Positions 6,051 through 38,452 of a stretch of DNA of 64,000 nt are shown piece after piece. Each line of letters starts with the position of its first letter. Positions within the stretch are counted from its first letter, which is position 1. Position numbers and translations under genes: made by a program. The DNA lies in IMG/VR virus record IMGVR_UViG_3300032007_000033, positions 1 to 64,000 of that record; one strand, given 5' to 3'. The notes beneath the pieces were generated by a model. It was not told the origin of the DNA. It ran no database searches and was given only the letters and a program-made list of their open reading frames with translations. This stretch comes from an uncultured virus (IMG/VR IMGVR_UViG_3300032007_000033) (taxonomy: Duplodnaviria > Heunggongvirae > Uroviricota > Caudoviricetes).

Positions 6051-6065
6051 ATCACCTCAATAAAA

Positions 6066-6094
6066 AATATAGCATGAAACGCTTGTTTTGTCAA
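6066..6094 (-). promoter_or_regulatory. Sigma70-type promoter
   Basis: TTGACA-N17-TATATT. Confidence 0.75.
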
Positions 6095-6132
6095 GTAAAA
6101 TTATAATCTCAAATCCTTTCAACTTTCATGTA

Positions 6133-27900: not shown

Positions 27901-28613
27901 TTTAAGTCGTCCTCCTCTCTCGATTTTTTATAATCCTCTATTATTTTATCCTTCAATCCTTCCAAACCCTTGGGCATTCGTCCGCAACACTTGATTTCCT
28001 TGCAGTAACCGATGTCCTCGCACTTGGGGACGAAGTAGTTGTCGCAAATCCACTTCCATTCCTCGGAGTAGGCGGAAAGTTTATCCTTGATTTCCTTGGA
28101 CAATTCCCTAATCTCATTGTAAGCCCTAGAGCAAAGCCTTTCGTTCATGAAGTGAATCAATGCTCGCAAGTTTATCTTCCACACGATTTTCGTGTCCATT
28201 CCCAACGGAAGGATGTTGGCTATGTCCTCTTTCGGCATTCCCAATTCCGCCAATTTTCCGTATGAGTCGGAAATCTCGTCCATCACCGTCTCGTAAATTT
28301 CTAGTTGCTTGGAGGATACTCCTTTGGGAGTATAGTAGTTGAAGTTCTCATAGTCAACATACCTCGTGGACGATTGTAAATAAGTGGTTCCCACTATATG
28401 ACGACCCAATTCTCTGATACATCTTGCGGATTTACAATCTATAATAAATACCACATCCACATATTCCATTATTCGCCCGTGTCCGCTATTGATGCATGAC
28501 TTGGCTCGTTTTATATTTTTATCAACATCGTCAATATTAGAATTCCAACAAACCCCAGCGATTTTTCCAATATAATTCAATGGATTTTTTTGGCAAGACT
28601 CAATCAATATCAT
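27897..28613 (-). CDS. thyX: FAD-dependent thymidylate synthase
   Basis: SGHGRIMEY, RH...QSSTRYV, KEDIANILP, NLRALIHF..ERLCSRA..EIR. Confidence 0.93.
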   Translation of the reverse strand: MILIESCQKNPLNYIGKIAGVCWNSNIDDVDKNIKRAKSCINSGHGRIMEYVDVVFIIDCKSARCIRELGRHIVGTTYLQSSTRYVDYENFNYYTPKGVSSKQLEIYETVMDEISDSYGKLAELGMPKEDIANILPLGMDTKIVWKINLRALIHFMNERLCSRAYNEIRELSKEIKDKLSAYSEEWKWICDNYFVPKCEDIGYCKEIKCCGRMPKGLEGLKDKIIEDYKKSREEDDLK

Positions 28614-29833
28614 TTATCTCTCCTTTCAGATACATAATCATTCAAATCATAAGCGTTTTGTTCAAAATGTTCAAACGCATCAAATAAATCATCTTTCTTT
28701 AAAATTTTGACATTATTGACAATCATACAGTTTTGTTTTTCAATCAACAATTCATTTTTATTATAAGGATTGATTAATTCACCTTTTTCGTTAAAAAAAT
28801 GGTCGCCTTTTATTTCAACCAATTCTCCATTTATCAAAAAATCAGGTTCGTATGAGTGTACTTTTCCATCTATTTCATAAGTTATGTTGGTTTTGGGATG
28901 AAAAATAAAATCAATTTTATTATCTTTCAGATACATATAATAAATTAATTCCCACGAACTATCAAATTTATTATTATCATATTCGAATTTATATTGATTC
29001 CATTGCTTTCCGTATTTTTCGATACATGTTTTTCTTATTTTATCTCTAACCCATTCTAATTTATTAATATTATCTACTCCATATTTCGCTAATGAAGATT
29101 CCGCTTTATGTTGTTTTACAACATCGCTTGAATTTGGACTTTCGACTCCGTATTTCAATAGGCTAGTTTGTTTGGTTTTTTCTTTATAATCTTTCGTTCC
29201 TAAATATTCTTCACTTCCATATTTAATTAGATTTGTTTGTTTTTTCTTTTTTTTAAATTCCTCAACTTGGCTCACATTTTCAATATTGTTGCCATAGCGA
29301 CTTTTTAATGTATTTTTAGTGTGCTCTTTCATAATTTCAGATTGAGTTGTATATTCAACTCCGTATTTTTTAAGATTTGTTTCTTTGGTTTTTTTCATTT
29401 TTAATTCATTGAAATTTTCCAAAGAACCATATTTTTCAATAATGGTTTTATTTCTTTTTTCGGCGGAAATTTTATTAAAATTTTCCAAAGAGCCAAAACG
29501 CTCGATTATTTTATTTTTGCGATTTTTTATATTTTTTTCAGTATTCATTGTACACGAAACCCCATATTTTGTTAAATTTGTTTCTTTTGCTTTATCGGCA
29601 TTTACATAATTTTCATTTCCATATTTTAATAATTTAGTATGTTTTACTGAACAAACCATACATCGAGAAATATTATTTCTATTTTTTATATTTTTTGCAA
29701 ATTTTGAAAATGGTTTTCCACAAACGCAACAAAGACCTTCAAACATTATGTTTGATGATTTTTTAAACAAAATATCATCGTTTACAATATCATTTATATT
29801 CGATGAAGTTATTGTGATAATATTATATTCCAT
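28610..29833 (-). CDS. Free-standing putative homing endonuclease (K.TNL.KYG repeats plus PD-(D/E)XK domain)
   Basis: Repeated TNLxKYG units; FDSSWE...YEPDF...VEIKG; very AT-rich. Confidence 0.8.
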   Translation of the reverse strand: MEYNIITITSSNINDIVNDDILFKKSSNIMFEGLCCVCGKPFSKFAKNIKNRNNISRCMVCSVKHTKLLKYGNENYVNADKAKETNLTKYGVSCTMNTEKNIKNRKNKIIERFGSLENFNKISAEKRNKTIIEKYGSLENFNELKMKKTKETNLKKYGVEYTTQSEIMKEHTKNTLKSRYGNNIENVSQVEEFKKKKKQTNLIKYGSEEYLGTKDYKEKTKQTSLLKYGVESPNSSDVVKQHKAESSLAKYGVDNINKLEWVRDKIRKTCIEKYGKQWNQYKFEYDNNKFDSSWELIYYMYLKDNKIDFIFHPKTNITYEIDGKVHSYEPDFLINGELVEIKGDHFFNEKGELINPYNKNELLIEKQNCMIVNNVKILKKDDLFDAFEHFEQNAYDLNDYVSERRDK

Positions 29834-29845
29834 TCAATCCTCCAA

Positions 29846-30986
29846 TCAAAAGTCGTCGTCGAACATCGAAGGCTCGACATAATCGACCCCGATTTTCCAA
29901 CCGTGAAGTTTGGCCATGTTGAGCAAGGTTTCCTTCTTGTAACCTGTCGCCTTGGACAAGGACGGAATTTTGTTGCTTTCATACAACCTTCGCTCGTCCA
30001 AAATTTCTTGCGGTATGTCGCTAGCCCTAACAGTCACCTCGCATATGTCGAACAAGGTTTCCCTATACTTTTTCAACTCATTGAACTCAATCTTGAAGTC
30101 CAACTCGTTGAGCACTTCGTCTCTCTTGGCTCTCTTCTTGCGATAAACCTTCCATTCCTCGAAGTCCTCCGTCAAGAACTCCACATCCGCGTCCTCTATG
30201 GCGGATAAAAGAATTGCAGAAGCCAACTGCTTTATGTTTTGCAAACTCGCCGACTCTAAGGCGATGTCCATGTATGGCGTTATTTGTTTCGTTCGCTCGC
30301 TCTTTTTCATTCGCCAATCTCCGCGTGGTACTTCACGCTCTCGTCCGTCAATTCGACCAACTTTTTGAAATCCTTTTCGTCCAACTCGTTCTTGGCCTCG
30401 ATGTAGAACCGCCAAAGCCAATGCTCCTTTTCCCTTTGGTTGCTCTCCTTTTCGTTTCTGTCGTACATGTTGACTTTCGCCAAAGAGCGTTTTAGACAAG
30501 CCATGGCGGTCTTGTACTTGGCCATTTGCTTGAAGAAGTTCTTGGAGTTCAACTCCTCTTCGTTCTCCGCTTGGTAGCGCATTCTCTTGGCGGACACCTC
30601 TTCGATGTTGCATTGCAAGTCTTGCTTCAACTGTTTCAGTTGCTCGCGCGTCATTTCAGACAAGTCCTCGTCGGAATAGACGATTTCCTCCCTCCCAATC
30701 CTAACTTTAACCATTTTGTCGTTTCCTCCAAATTTTTTATATTTCATCCGAGCCTCTTGTCGGTTCAAGCGTTCGGATTGTTTCTCATGCAATCGCTGAT
30801 TCTTTTGACTTCCACAATCTTGTTGTTGGGAAACTTCTTCCTAGCCTCTAGTTCCGCGCAATATCCGTCGGCAGTCACACAGACATATTCGGAAGGCTTT
30901 CCGCTTTCGTCAACCATTTCGACTTTATACTTATACATTGGGGTATTTCCTCCAATAATCGGAAGGCACATTGTTAGCCCAAACAT
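29846..30986 (-). other. Hypothetical ORFs 29846..30310, 30307..30792 and 30765..30986
   Basis: Coupled ORFs downstream of the topo IB C-fragment. Confidence 0.6.
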
Positions 30987-31653
30987 TGAATCTTTCGACC
31001 AAAGACTTGGAATAAATCGTCGTAGGCTCGTGGTTCGTATCCTTGCACAATGAATATGCCACTTTCGGATTTGAGTAGTTTGTCATCGCGGTATTCAAAG
31101 CGATGTTTCTGTTTTCCGAATTGGATTTGGCCAATTTCTTAATGTCCTTGAATTTCTGTTCCGCCCCCTTCAACTTGTCGTTCAATTCTTTTCTTTGAGC
31201 GGATATTTCGCTCAATTTCTCCTTGAGAAGTTTTCCGTCAAGGCAAGATTTGTAGTCGGATTCTAGTCCGTCAAGTTTCGCCAATTTTTTCTCTATTGAA
31301 TTTTTGGACTTGTCGAACGAAGCCTTCGCTTTCTTGGTTTTGTTTTTCGTGGATTCGTCAATTTTTTCGTTTTGCTCTTTGGTTAGCGTTTTCTTATGGT
31401 TGAGTTTAATCGTGACCACTTTAGCGCAATCCATGTATTGATTCTTGAACTGTTTGTCGGTCAGATTGCTCCAATCTCTCTTTTGAATTTCTTCCGCAAG
31501 CAAAGATGTGCCGAAATAAGTTCTGAATGTTTTTGCTGTTGCGAACTCATATTTATTTTTTATTGTTTCCAATAACGAATCGTCAATTTCAAATTTATCG
31601 ACCGATAGCAAGTTCTTCAAGCGTTTTGGTAATTTTGTCATAATTATAAGCAT
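30931..31653 (-). CDS. DNA topoisomerase IB, C-terminal piece (second Arg, His, linker, catalytic Tyr)
   Basis: ATAKTFRTY, LNHKK, coiled-coil linker, TAMTNYSNPK; AAGGAGGG RBS upstream of ATG 31653. Confidence 0.88.
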   Translation of the reverse strand: MLIIMTKLPKRLKNLLSVDKFEIDDSLLETIKNKYEFATAKTFRTYFGTSLLAEEIQKRDWSNLTDKQFKNQYMDCAKVVTIKLNHKKTLTKEQNEKIDESTKNKTKKAKASFDKSKNSIEKKLAKLDGLESDYKSCLDGKLLKEKLSEISAQRKELNDKLKGAEQKFKDIKKLAKSNSENRNIALNTAMTNYSNPKVAYSLCKDTNHEPTTIYSKSLVERFNVWANNVPSDYWRKYPNV

Positions 31654-32539
31654 ATTTGCCCTCCTTAATATTATTATATACTGTTTGTGTGTATTCGTCA
31701 AAATAATTTTTATAAACTTTTATAAAATCATTCCAAGCAATATCAATGTTAAATTTATTATATAAAAATTGTTGTAATGCTTTATTTGATTTTATTTTTA
31801 ATTTTACTTTTTCATTTTTAGCGATGTTTTTTTCACCCTTCATGGAATCACTTCGTATTTTTTTACTTTCTTCAGTGATTCCATTTTTGCGTTTTTCAGA
31901 ATAAATTTTTTTATCTCCATCGGATAAAGAATCCCAAAACATTTTATTTTTTTCAGATTTATTTTTCTTTTCTTTTTCATTCCAATGTTTCCCTTTCATT
32001 GGATTGATATAATTTTTTTGTTTTGCTAATTTTTTATGAGTTTTGCTTGATTTTTCTTTCAATTCATTTGTCCACATTTCTTTAACTTTTTGTTTATGAA
32101 AATCTTTAACTTTTTCAAAGCCATCTCTTTGATGTTGTCTTAATGTATCGAATTCTTCTTTTGATAAAGATTTATACCATGATTTTGTAGATTGAGATTT
32201 TTTTAATTTTTGTTCATCAGTTATATATAAATTATAATTAGATTCCCCACCTTCGGTCATGTTGTATCCAAAATTTAAATCATTGGAATGAAAAAGTTTA
32301 ATTAATCTTTTTTCCCAATAATTTAAGTCATAAGTTTCAATTAATATTTCAAAAGAAAAATTTTTAACGCCATATTTTCTTATTGCTTTATGAATATAAC
32401 AATCATCTTTTGAATTTATATGAGAAATCCATCTATTGTGAATATCAATTGATTGACCGATATAAACTTTATGATTTATGAGATTTTCAATTTTATAAAT
32501 TCCACTAATATGATTATTATATATTTTATGTCTACTCAT
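31595..32539 (-). CDS. GIY-YIG homing endonuclease with a NUMOD3-like tail
   Basis: GIYKIENLINHKVYIGQS, NFSFEIL, GYNMTEGG, NPMKGKHW. Confidence 0.92.
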   Translation of the reverse strand: MSRHKIYNNHISGIYKIENLINHKVYIGQSIDIHNRWISHINSKDDCYIHKAIRKYGVKNFSFEILIETYDLNYWEKRLIKLFHSNDLNFGYNMTEGGESNYNLYITDEQKLKKSQSTKSWYKSLSKEEFDTLRQHQRDGFEKVKDFHKQKVKEMWTNELKEKSSKTHKKLAKQKNYINPMKGKHWNEKEKKNKSEKNKMFWDSLSDGDKKIYSEKRKNGITEESKKIRSDSMKGEKNIAKNEKVKLKIKSNKALQQFLYNKFNIDIAWNDFIKVYKNYFDEYTQTVYNNIKEGKYAYNYDKITKTLEELAIGR

Positions 32540-33716
32540 TTAAATAATCCATTACATTATATTTAACAATCAAACCTATCGCTAATTTAATGTCATTTTC
32601 ATTTTTAGATAACAATAGTTCGTCAATTTTTATTTTTAAGCATACATTATTTAAAAATTCGTTCACATCGTTAGACGATATTTTGTCGAACGCTCTGTCT
32701 TTTGGGCTTTTGTCTTTCAAGCATTTTTTCAACGAATCAAAAGCGTCCTCATCAACTTTCATCGTGTTGTCCATTACCATTGAGTCTTTACCCAAGAAAT
32801 GCAAACGGACTTTTTTGCTTTCCAACAAAATGATGTTCTCAACTTTAAGGGTGGACGCTCCGACGACCCCATTGTTCCGTTTGTCCTCGTTGCCCGCTCG
32901 TATACCAAATTTAGAGATTATGTAGGCACAACAACCAATTTGCCGTTTCTTGGCGTTGTCGGACAAGTAAGCGTCTTTTATCGCCTTGGTGACCTTTCTG
33001 ATGTTTTGTTGCAGAAGCCTAGCATTCTCGAATTTTTCCTCGTCGGAATCCGCCTTGAATAAAGACTTGTTGGAAAACCAAATCGCCTTTTGAATCGTGA
33101 CGCTAGGATTTCCAATCAACCGCTCGGTGTAGGTGGCAATTGAAGAGGTGTCCTTGAACGACACATCCTTCCATTTGTGAGTTCCGTAATCGCACGGAAA
33201 CGGATAAGACGAATTGATTGACACATCTTCAGGCATTACATCTTCCACAACAAATCCGCTCCATTCGCAAGCACCGCGCCCTATGAATATTCGGCTAGAC
33301 TCGATTAATGAGTTTCCTATCTCAACCTTCTCTCCGTCAACCAAAGCGTAGCCGTAGGTTTCCTTCCATTTTTTGTTTTCTTCCGCTATTTCCTTTCTAT
33401 GTTCTTTATTGTAAAGTTTCTTTTCTTCCGCGTATTTTTCTTTAATCGCTTTCATTCTTGACAGAACCGTTTCGAAGTCGGACGGAAATTTCAATTCCTT
33501 CTGTTCCTTCGTCAGTTCCGTTTTTAATGACTTATAAAAATTCTTTTGGTAGACATTTTCGCTTTTGTATTTGTCCGCCAAAGTAGACCACATGAAGAGC
33601 CATTTCACCGCTCGATATGACAATCTCATTTTATTCTCGTTGGAATAATATTCGTCAATGTAGGGTAATTCCTTGGGGAATTTCACGCACCCTTCAATTA
33701 ATTTGAGTTCTTTCAT
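32532..33716 (-). CDS. DNA topoisomerase IB, N-terminal piece (core; first Arg and Lys)
   Basis: YGYALVDG...IE...F.GRG, PEDVSIN, HKWKDV, KFENAR, IRAGNE, VGASTL, FLGKDS. Confidence 0.9.
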   Translation of the reverse strand: MKELKLIEGCVKFPKELPYIDEYYSNENKMRLSYRAVKWLFMWSTLADKYKSENVYQKNFYKSLKTELTKEQKELKFPSDFETVLSRMKAIKEKYAEEKKLYNKEHRKEIAEENKKWKETYGYALVDGEKVEIGNSLIESSRIFIGRGACEWSGFVVEDVMPEDVSINSSYPFPCDYGTHKWKDVSFKDTSSIATYTERLIGNPSVTIQKAIWFSNKSLFKADSDEEKFENARLLQQNIRKVTKAIKDAYLSDNAKKRQIGCCAYIISKFGIRAGNEDKRNNGVVGASTLKVENIILLESKKVRLHFLGKDSMVMDNTMKVDEDAFDSLKKCLKDKSPKDRAFDKISSNDVNEFLNNVCLKIKIDELLLSKNENDIKLAIGLIVKYNVMDYLNE

Positions 33717-33725
33717 ATGTTTTCC

Positions 33726-34100
33726 TTAAAATTGATTTCCGTTTTCGTCCAAGAAGTTGGACATGAAGTAAACGACAGGCACCAAATGAACCGAGGCCAC
33801 GCTCTTCCATTCCGACAACTCGACATTCCAACAGTCCGCGAACCGCAAGCCTCTGAACACCCACTTCGTTCCGTTGGCGTCTATGGCGAAGACCTCTCCG
33901 TTCGACGAGTATAGCCTAGAGAACAACCTCTGAACCAACTCTTCCTTGGGGCACTCGTCATGGTAACGTTTGTGCTCGATTCTGTCCTTTCCGTTGAAAA
34001 TCACTCTGTCCAAGTAGTCCGTTCCGCTCTTTATCAAGTTTCCGCACTTTAGGCACACATAGTCCTTCTTGGCAGTCCTTACGATGATGGAATCGCTCAT
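33726..34100 (-). CDS. Hypothetical protein with a CxxC...HxxC zinc finger
   Basis: TAKKDYVCLKC...HDEC. Confidence 0.65.
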   Translation of the reverse strand: MSDSIIVRTAKKDYVCLKCGNLIKSGTDYLDRVIFNGKDRIEHKRYHDECPKEELVQRLFSRLYSSNGEVFAIDANGTKWVFRGLRFADCWNVELSEWKSVASVHLVPVVYFMSNFLDENGNQF

Positions 34101-34136: not shown

Positions 34137-34165
34137 ATTATAGCATGTATTGCTCGCTTTGTCAA
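34137..34165 (-). promoter_or_regulatory. Sigma70-type promoter of the topo IB operon
   Basis: TTGACA-N17-TATAAT with extended -10 TG. Confidence 0.88.
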
Positions 34166-37270: not shown

Positions 37271-38452
37271 TTAGTCCGCATATTCAAATCTATATCCAAA
37301 ATATGTTTTTCTTTTCAAATCACCTCTACATATATTACGAATTGCATCTTTTATACTTCTATCTTTAGAATTTGAAATAGTATTTTTTCTTAAATATTCC
37401 AACAAATCTTCCATTATGAAAATTCCTACAAATTCATTATGATAAAAAACTTTAATTTTATGTGCTTTTGCTCTATGTGTTTTGGTTGTTTGTTCGATTC
37501 TTAATTTATTTGCTAATTCTTTATCGTAAAAACACAATCCGTATTCCGTTCCAATATTCAAATATTTTTCAACTGTACTTCTATCTAAATCAAATATTTT
37601 AGATATATTTAATGTACTTTTATTTTCATCTTTTGCGTTTTTATAATATTCACAAACTTTAATTAAGAGGTTACTCAACGCCCATTTTCCACAATCTTCC
37701 CAATTAACTTTAGATAAATCAAGTATTTCGGATAATTGTGATTTCAAAATACTTTCTTTTATAAAATCAACAGATGATACATCACAATTTATTCTTATCA
37801 CTTCAATGTCATGTTCTTTTGCTAATATATCTTTATATCTATCTCGTTCTAATCCTTCAACATCTTTTTCTTTAGAATTAAATTTCAATTTACCATGACC
37901 AATCCCACCATCCATCTCAATTATGTATTTTTGTTCATTAAATTCAAAATAGCAATCGTATTTATACGGTTTTATCCACGAAGGATGATATTCATATTCT
38001 AAATTATTTACATCAAAATGTTTCATAAACGCTCGAAGAAATTTATTAGGATAACTTAACGAATCGTTAGGGCAATTATAACATTTATATTTAATCACAT
38101 ATCTACCTTGTTCATATTTTTCATCTCCACAGACAGGACATTTGAACAAAAATTTATGTCTTGTTCCATAACTGTATGTTTTTGCCAAATCTTTATTTAC
38201 AATTAAATACATTAAATTAGAATAAGTACTATATAAATCATTCACACCTTGAGTTACTTTAAGATTAGTACGAGGATAATTAAGTCTGACAATTTCATAT
38301 TCTTCTTCATCGTAATTTCTTAAACAATCACCACAAAAAGTATATTGCCAATTTTTACAAGATTCTGTATTACATATAAAATCTTTATGACAATAATCAC
38401 ACTCACAAACAAATCTGTTTTTATCGTTTCTTAATTGATGTTTAAATCCCAT
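37271..38452 (-). CDS. Zinc-ribbon plus Vsr/DUF559-like putative homing endonuclease
   Basis: CxxC motifs; YDCYF...IEMDGGIGH...D.YKD.LA; NUMOD1-like end KTYFGYRFEY. Confidence 0.75.
   Translation of the reverse strand: MGFKHQLRNDKNRFVCECDYCHKDFICNTESCKNWQYTFCGDCLRNYDEEEYEIVRLNYPRTNLKVTQGVNDLYSTYSNLMYLIVNKDLAKTYSYGTRHKFLFKCPVCGDEKYEQGRYVIKYKCYNCPNDSLSYPNKFLRAFMKHFDVNNLEYEYHPSWIKPYKYDCYFEFNEQKYIIEMDGGIGHGKLKFNSKEKDVEGLERDRYKDILAKEHDIEVIRINCDVSSVDFIKESILKSQLSEILDLSKVNWEDCGKWALSNLLIKVCEYYKNAKDENKSTLNISKIFDLDRSTVEKYLNIGTEYGLCFYDKELANKLRIEQTTKTHRAKAHKIKVFYHNEFVGIFIMEDLLEYLRKNTISNSKDRSIKDAIRNICRGDLKRKTYFGYRFEYAD

Follow-up and report, generated by a model that had tools for sequence, protein, structure and literature searches.

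The 64,000 nucleotides analysed here (the window) form the beginning of a 135-kb virus record (IMG/VR IMGVR_UViG_3300032007_000033; 64% complete), and they carry a type IB topoisomerase (topo IB) gene that is divided in two, inside its catalytic domain, by an AT-rich cassette encoding a GIY-YIG nuclease. Judged by its sequence features, the cassette is very likely a mobile homing element that works without splicing, and the two chains quite probably form an active two-chain enzyme, whether the tails on them or the native interface bring them together. By analogy with MobA in topoisomerase II and MobE in nrdA, we favour, with moderate confidence, a reassembly that is helped by element-encoded tails. 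Because the record contains tail sheath and tail tube genes together with bacterial-type promoters and ribosome binding sites (RBSs), we consider it to be a myovirus-like phage. The metagenome runs containing the stretch come mostly from bovine gut, and assembled contigs were compared from four of the 20 listed runs. Feature coordinates are given in Table 1.

Over both pieces, the N-terminal DNA-binding domain, core, linker, C-terminal Tyr domain, R-K-R-H-Y pentad and fold of a long, eukaryote-type topo IB are all present. The N-piece matches the Pfam families Topoisom_I_N and Topoisom_I (profile positions 2-143), and the C-piece matches Topoisom_I (positions 140-225) and Topo_C_assoc. An earlier reading of the DNA made from its letters alone (the sequence-only reading) had stated that the catalytic motifs are shared out between the pieces. 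All of them were found, IRAGN at 272 and GKDS at 309 in the N-piece and AKTFRT at 40, KLNHK at 83 and TNYS at 191 in the C-piece, and the motifs of both pieces align with human Top1 chains; following that reading, we take the human counterparts to be R488, K532, R590, H632 and Y723. The pentad is split 2+3, with Arg273 and Lys310 on one chain and Arg44, His86 and Tyr193, as well as the conserved Lys41, on the other. The five catalytic residues are kept in every split piece seen (2/2 N-pieces and 5/5 C-piece-containing proteins). We start the C-piece at ATG 31653. The list of open reading frames (ORFs) gives TTG 31701 instead, which is the first base of a −35 box, and the sequence collection contains the 240-aa form without the longer TTG-start form.

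The predicted fold of the N-piece superimposes on residues 217-583 of human Top1 (1rr8; Z 23.8, root-mean-square deviation (rmsd) 2.5 Å, 350 residues aligned) and that of the C-piece on residues 586-765 (Z 13.7, rmsd 1.8 Å, 103 aligned). Since the halves end at about human residue 583 and resume at about 586, these models locate the break in a loop between two catalytic-domain helices, so that both new ends would begin at the same spot. Some structural alignments of the N-piece continue into its tail; these may be an artefact of single-chain folding and were not used. No second topo IB was found in the 135-kb record, which is 64% complete, and tblastn of the phage enzyme against 50,697 cultured-phage records gave no match. 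Other uncultured viral contigs carry versions that are 32-35% identical (P0002-P0023; L012, L014, L015, L034 and L089).

The topoisomerase halves that flank the cassette contain 41% and 40% GC, compared with 22.9% in the cassette, and the uninterrupted allele was recovered both as DNA and as protein. One contig of run X4, from another study, joins position 31530 to 32652 with 39 other bases between them, and therefore 1,121 nt have replaced 39 nt. Those 39 bases encode the 13 residues found at that place in P0048, a 567-aa protein that matches both halves: residues 1-355 of the N-piece agree with it at 354 of 355 positions (99.7%), and residues 41-240 of the C-piece equal its residues 368-567 (200/200). 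Uninterrupted genes with the same neighbours are present in L002 and L006-L009, and in a run of a third study two contigs (31214-32326 and 32334-32600) show the filled allele at about 99%. None of the 1,121 bases of the cassette is non-coding; no target duplication or terminal repeats were found at it, and blastn of the cassette against cultured phages gave no match. Its first residues (NNVC..IK) and its last (TAK) resemble those of intact alleles such as P0044 and P0186, which suggests that the ancestral insertion was probably nearly clean and that flanking codons now travel with the cassette, like the homologous replacement region of MobA. Among 91 fetched loci, the only other split topo IB loci were records of the same phage (L001, L003, L005 and L011), and L088 has a second short match. 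P0185, P0184, P0204 and P0206 were rejected as further split forms, as they have no tails. Variants in the topoisomerase in runs X3 and X4 (classified in three ORFs, with 9 variant rows left out) are mostly silent, and they were set aside as evidence of post-split selection because two of them are common to the empty allele.

Comparison with the nearest empty allele gives tail lengths of 39 aa for the N-piece and 41 aa for the C-piece; the sequence-only reading was right that they exist but had put them at 35-40 and about 30 aa. As it had also proposed, they are borne by the cassette and are missing from the intact alleles. Host sequence of other alleles is resembled by about the first eight N-tail residues and the last three to four C-tail residues. 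In 20,000 base shuffles, the N-tail stayed open for 39 codons in 0.65% and the C-tail for 41 codons in 2.0%. In the AlphaFold2 model, the native helix of the N-piece runs on to residue 369 and is followed by helices at 373-385 and 389-393 (pLDDT of 85, 85, 76 and 58 by block over 361-394); this tail folds with good confidence from an alignment of two rows. The tails are of weakly opposite net charge (pI 5.2 and 9.2). Complex prediction with the two tails alone (aa 356-394 and aa 1-41) scored 0.02 against a mark of 0.32, which speaks neither for nor against their association. A phmmer search of 1.84 billion representatives with the N-tail gave 0 matches at E 0.001, and in the Atlas the N-tail returned only leads under 0.9 and the C-head no usable match; queries this short are weak and absence is not implied, the C-head having had no sequence search of its own. 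We also considered whether the C-head could have diverged from a copy of the native pre-break helix, and discarded this, since 15-75% of its shuffles score as high as the head itself on a profile made from 99 homologous segments.

The nuclease ORF overlaps both topoisomerase pieces, as had been noted from the letters: it overlaps the N-piece stop by 8 nt, and the C-piece start overlaps its end by 59 nt. The GIY (13) and YIG (26) motifs, Arg36, Glu76 and Asn93 are present, presumably with the catalytic roles of the corresponding residues in I-TevI. The RBS claimed for the C-piece is indeed there (AAGGAGGG, 31666-31659), and the nuclease gene contains in addition a promoter-like site that the sequence-only reading missed, TTGACG-17-TATAAT, which is one of 27 sites in the 135-kb record scoring 11/12 or better. 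Among 2,000 dinucleotide shuffles of the cassette, 0.45% produced a promoter of at least 11/12 that ends at most 60 nt from the ATG, and 0.1% produced AGGAG at RBS distance. We infer that the promoter-like site, the RBS and the ATG are used to restart the C-piece.

The tails recur, as that reading had thought worth a search, in a second cassette type (type B). P0001 is a 395-aa N-piece whose tail is identical to that of the window at 36 of 39 residues, the differences being three hydrophobic-type swaps, and P0057, P0058 and P0060 are 240-aa C-pieces, each with a head identical at 35 of 41. A family of nucleases (P0065, P0189-P0192 and P0194) is about 84% identical to the window nuclease. These nucleases and the split pieces come from contigs of equal size (5129, 5027, 18256 and 20476), and P0065 fits the heads of P0057, P0058 and P0060 exactly in two frames, with no such fit to the window head; their linkage rests on these two features, at the level of proteins and not of contig DNA. 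All six type-B nucleases keep the residues KEG that encode the RBS, and five of the six keep the promoter-encoding residues at the same spacing, P0191 having one change in the −35 box.

The nearest intact alleles of the split genes differ: P0048 for the window (99.7% and 100%), the P0051-P0062 group for P0057, P0058 and P0060 (97.5-99%) and P0044 for P0001 (92.7%). The second cassette type sits in a host lineage about 80% identical to that of the first (the backgrounds share about 79-81%), and for this reason the simplest reading of the sequences is that the element moves between phage lineages by homing. A single clade for the two split N-cores was rejected (approximately unbiased test, p-AU 4e-69; 32 rows), and on C-core trees the split label requires 4-5 changes. 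Split alleles are a minority: in a cluster of 416 members, 240-aa C-pieces account for 3 of the 15 that are listed. Between the intact alleles of L002 and L006, which are 94% identical, 95 of 1,704 bases differ, and a 45-base interval at the insertion site (L002 about 6054-6098, L006 about 1467-1511), the most divergent of its kind in the gene, accounts for 17 of the differences. The site types TGKL, SNKT and TAKT are scattered, with 7 changes on a 33-row tree for a minimum of 2. This pattern fits block exchange at the target of the nuclease, whose cutting is putative. At the protein level, the variability of the site among 26 close intact alleles is not an outlier (22% of intervals are as high).

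In the mechanism that we propose, a free-standing GIY-YIG cassette would spread among related cattle-gut phages by cutting an uninterrupted topo IB gene at conserved codons just before the K-x-F-R-T helix, and would be copied in by repair. It would then stay in the transcript and not be spliced out. The first half is closed by a 39-aa tail and a stop that the cassette supplies; the second half would restart from the promoter, RBS and ATG seen in the cassette, with a 41-aa head. The two chains would fold together through the native core interface, rebuilding the five-residue active site (Arg273 and Lys310 with Arg44, His86 and Tyr193), and the tails may make up a small bracket on the outside, stabilising the join or acting as its chaperone, by analogy with the insertion in T4 topoisomerase II.

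MobA in T4 genes 39/60 (bioRxiv 10.1101/2022.08.31.505936) is likewise an intron-less and intein-less cassette of about 1.1 kb in a topoisomerase catalytic domain, with in-frame tails of about 40 aa on both pieces, a nuclease ORF that overlaps the tails, a short host stretch replaced by homologous sequence and near-identical empty alleles in several lineages. It differs in that its nuclease is HNH and not GIY-YIG, and its host is unrelated to the normally single-chain type IB enzyme; here, moreover, the C-piece is one open frame from ATG 31653 with no bypass, and a promoter-like site precedes it. VSR and GIY-YIG replacements of MobA in the supplements of the same preprint may bear on how rare a GIY-YIG version is. 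In Aeromonas phage Aeh1 (nrdA-a / mobE / nrdA-b; PMC3045599), a free-standing endonuclease in an AT-rich insert also divides active-site residues and leaves element-derived tails of opposite net charge, a contrast that is much weaker here; there the nuclease is HNH, the host is a ribonucleotide reductase and the tails serve a higher-order assembly for which a monomeric topo IB has no need. The T4 topoisomerase II tails are pendant outside the catalytic domain and are described as an assembly bracket (PMC11461880); those of Aeh1 were required for activity and for higher assembly, whereas binding between the two pieces did not depend on them (PMC3045599). The mechanism that the sequence-only reading proposed is a known one. 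With an intragenic nuclease and intact close alleles, two-sided tails, replacement of a host stretch and recurrence of the tails, the cassette is by its sequence features of the MobA/MobE kind, yet neither element proper.

The bi-subunit topo IB of kinetoplastids (PMC2063514) is also a type IB enzyme of two chains with a composite active site. Its large subunit holds Arg, Lys, Arg and His and its small subunit only Tyr, with the break in the linker; here the break lies inside the core, the second Arg and the His are on the C-piece, and the split point differs as had been claimed. The phage break was, moreover, caused by a mobile element that is still in place. In the fractured genes that have been described, split inteins flank a free-standing GIY-YIG gene. 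Those genes and the split gp43 of Aeromonas phage 25 (PMC2677866) resemble our locus in that the gene of an enzyme lies in two parts on either side of a GIY-YIG gene, but the phage topo IB has no intein halves, and its empty alleles and cassette boundaries are defined.

Several observations weigh against a tail-assisted, two-chain enzyme. The N-tail identity of 36/39 is not significantly above that of the nuclease (266/315; Fisher p 0.24, N-tail tests p 0.15-0.24), the excess of head-sparing changes in the dual-coding codons is not significant either (p 0.03-0.09), no tail helix exceeds its shuffles in amphipathicity, and the C-head modelled alone has low confidence (pLDDT 33-66). A single clade for the split C-cores was not rejected (p-AU 0.34, identical rows left free). 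The window insertion is so recent, with one aa difference from P0048, that purifying selection after the split is unreadable. RNA from a single run gave one 239-nt contig covering 32707-32945 of the N-piece, which does not reach the junctions and shows neither splicing nor its absence. One 537-aa protein, P0193, has the nuclease fused in frame to a whole C-piece through a frameshift that lies in or close to an A-run immediately ahead of the promoter-like site (window about 31705-31712); it comes from a single contig and may be an assembly error. The earlier proposal of cassette-encoded docking helices is accordingly borne out in part: the tails are cassette-encoded and the N-tail is predicted to be helical, but the C-tail alone is not confidently so and the conservation excess lacks significance. 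We put forward the docking role as a hypothesis.

If the native interface alone rejoined the chains, the tails would stay open but do no structural work, having arisen incidentally from the restart signal and from how far away the next stop lies. We think this unlikely, even though tail identity does not significantly exceed that of the nuclease, tail-less Aeh1 pieces still formed an a/b heterodimer (PMC3045599) and the T4 insertion little affected the activity of the fused enzyme (PMC11461880). The N-tails of the two cassette types differ by hydrophobic-type swaps only, in a tail that folds with good confidence, and MobA tails are reported to be always retained (bioRxiv 10.1101/2022.08.31.505936). 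Of the 8-10 differences inferred for the 19 dual-coding codons, 5 alter the nuclease but are silent for the head, compared with 26% expected, a lean towards sparing the head. Tail conservation thus leans towards selection, with an excess over the nuclease that is not significant.

It is more improbable that the enzyme is dispensable and killed by the insertion, with the cassette spreading by homing alone and its promoter serving downstream genes. The recent look of the insertions, the minority of split alleles and the lack of any match among the cultured phages, which can hence live without the enzyme, would agree with such a loss; the RBS, ATG and 41-codon open head are nevertheless kept across two cassette types 16% apart, and no stop or catalytic loss occurs in any split piece seen.

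Restoration of a single chain, by an unrecognised group I-like intron that overlaps the frames or by ribosomal bypass, appears very improbable. Intron cores can overlap their ORF, the nuclease scores above the cut-off for a group I intron endonuclease family, and RNA across the junction was not seen. Against these points, Rfam at E up to 5 over 30500-34000 gave two chance matches and no intron, the four stretches flanking the junctions fold no better than shuffles (z −1.3 to 1.5), a hairpin over the nuclease start is not beyond chance (z −1.29), and dedicated restart signals would be needless. A group I or II intron is disfavoured by the lack of a covariance-model match and of room for a structured core in a cassette with 23% GC and 0 non-coding bases. 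No alternative genetic code reads the N-piece through its stop. Inteins have a minimum domain size and carry Asn or Gln at their end before Cys, Ser or Thr. Split-intein halves joining the chains are scarcely credible, as the N-tail has a Cys near its start but the tails are too short at 80 aa in total, the head end lacks Asn or Gln before Cys, Ser or Thr, no intein model in Pfam or NCBIfam matches either tail at E up to 10, and the fractured-gene arrangement was rejected for want of intein halves at the new ends. These searches agree with the sequence-only reading that there is no intron or intein signal.

Tail-assisted reassembly may be taken a step further, into a proposal that we regard as doubtful. 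The tails would be a self-sufficient, portable clip of 39+41 aa that allows a normally single-chain topo IB to function despite a cut across the catalytic domain, and the cassette would be in a running arms race with its target, the site codons being block-swapped among intact alleles as an escape from the nuclease. If true, this would be a natural, still mobile system in which to watch a one-chain enzyme become a two-chain one.

Table 1. Features of the interrupted topo IB locus (window coordinates)
Feature	Position	Strand	Remarks
Topo IB N-piece, 394 aa	32532..33716	-	DNA-binding N domain; first half of catalytic core, including Arg273 and Lys310; cassette tail at the end
Topo IB C-piece, 240 aa	30931..31653	-	Arg44, His86, coiled-coil linker, Tyr193
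Putative mobile cassette, 1,121 nt, 22.9% GC	31531..32651	-	Replaces 39 nt (13 codons, GSICKDIPHLSNK) of nearest empty allele
N-piece C-terminal tail, aa 356-394 (39 aa)	32535..32651	-	About aa 356-363 host-like, rest foreign
C-piece N-terminal head, aa 1-41	31531..31653	-	First 19 codons dual-coding with nuclease; last residues ATAK host-like, including conserved Lys41
GIY-YIG homing endonuclease gene, 314 aa, free-standing, intact	31595..32539	-	Pfam above cut-off, PHROGs, TIGR01453 above cut-off
Promoter-like site TTGACG-17-TATAAT	31673..31701	-	Inside nuclease gene, 20 nt before C-piece ATG; like the other sigma-70-like sites of the phage
RBS of C-piece, AAGGAGGG	31659..31666	-	Within nuclease frame, 5 nt before ATG
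Consensus promoter, 12 of 12	34137..34165	-	Upstream of gene run containing N-piece

Elsewhere in the window, an AT-rich 407-aa DUF7487 / homing-endonuclease-like gene (28610-29833, minus strand) lies immediately upstream of thyX and is missing from that place in L002 and L006. An AT-rich 393-aa gene with weak PHROG matches to homing/HNH endonucleases (37271-38452, minus strand) is flanked by two tail-fibre-like genes. At 42487-46911 (plus strand), an ATP-cone-like ORF, an AT-rich 444-aa ORF and a reductase-like ORF are consecutive, an arrangement that, as a guess from the ORF starts, suggests a second interrupted gene, an anaerobic ribonucleotide reductase. In the relative L002 (177-4780), the region upstream of the topoisomerase holds a run of four genes whose CxxxCxxC motifs look radical-SAM-like when judged by eye, together with a glycosyltransferase-like gene; other genes occupy this place in the window. 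An AATTTT-like stretch stands directly before TTGACA in most of the 27 strong promoter-like sites of the whole record. A terminase was searched for in the L001 and L002 records and was not found.

In open-licence PubMed Central and bioRxiv, with subscription journals outside this scope, we found no paper that treats either this phage enzyme or a topo IB split by a nuclease gene. Two characterised cases underlie the concept of splicing-free rescue through element-borne tails, and in each an HNH nuclease interrupts a multi-subunit enzyme. The present cassette, with a GIY-YIG nuclease and a monomeric host enzyme, its own promoter, empty alleles and two types, would show that the strategy arose again. 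The function of the tails would be cleanly testable in a monomeric topo IB, in which no higher-order assembly confounds the result. The locus also points to a tolerated break inside the catalytic domain of type IB topoisomerases, unlike the linker break of the kinetoplastid enzyme.

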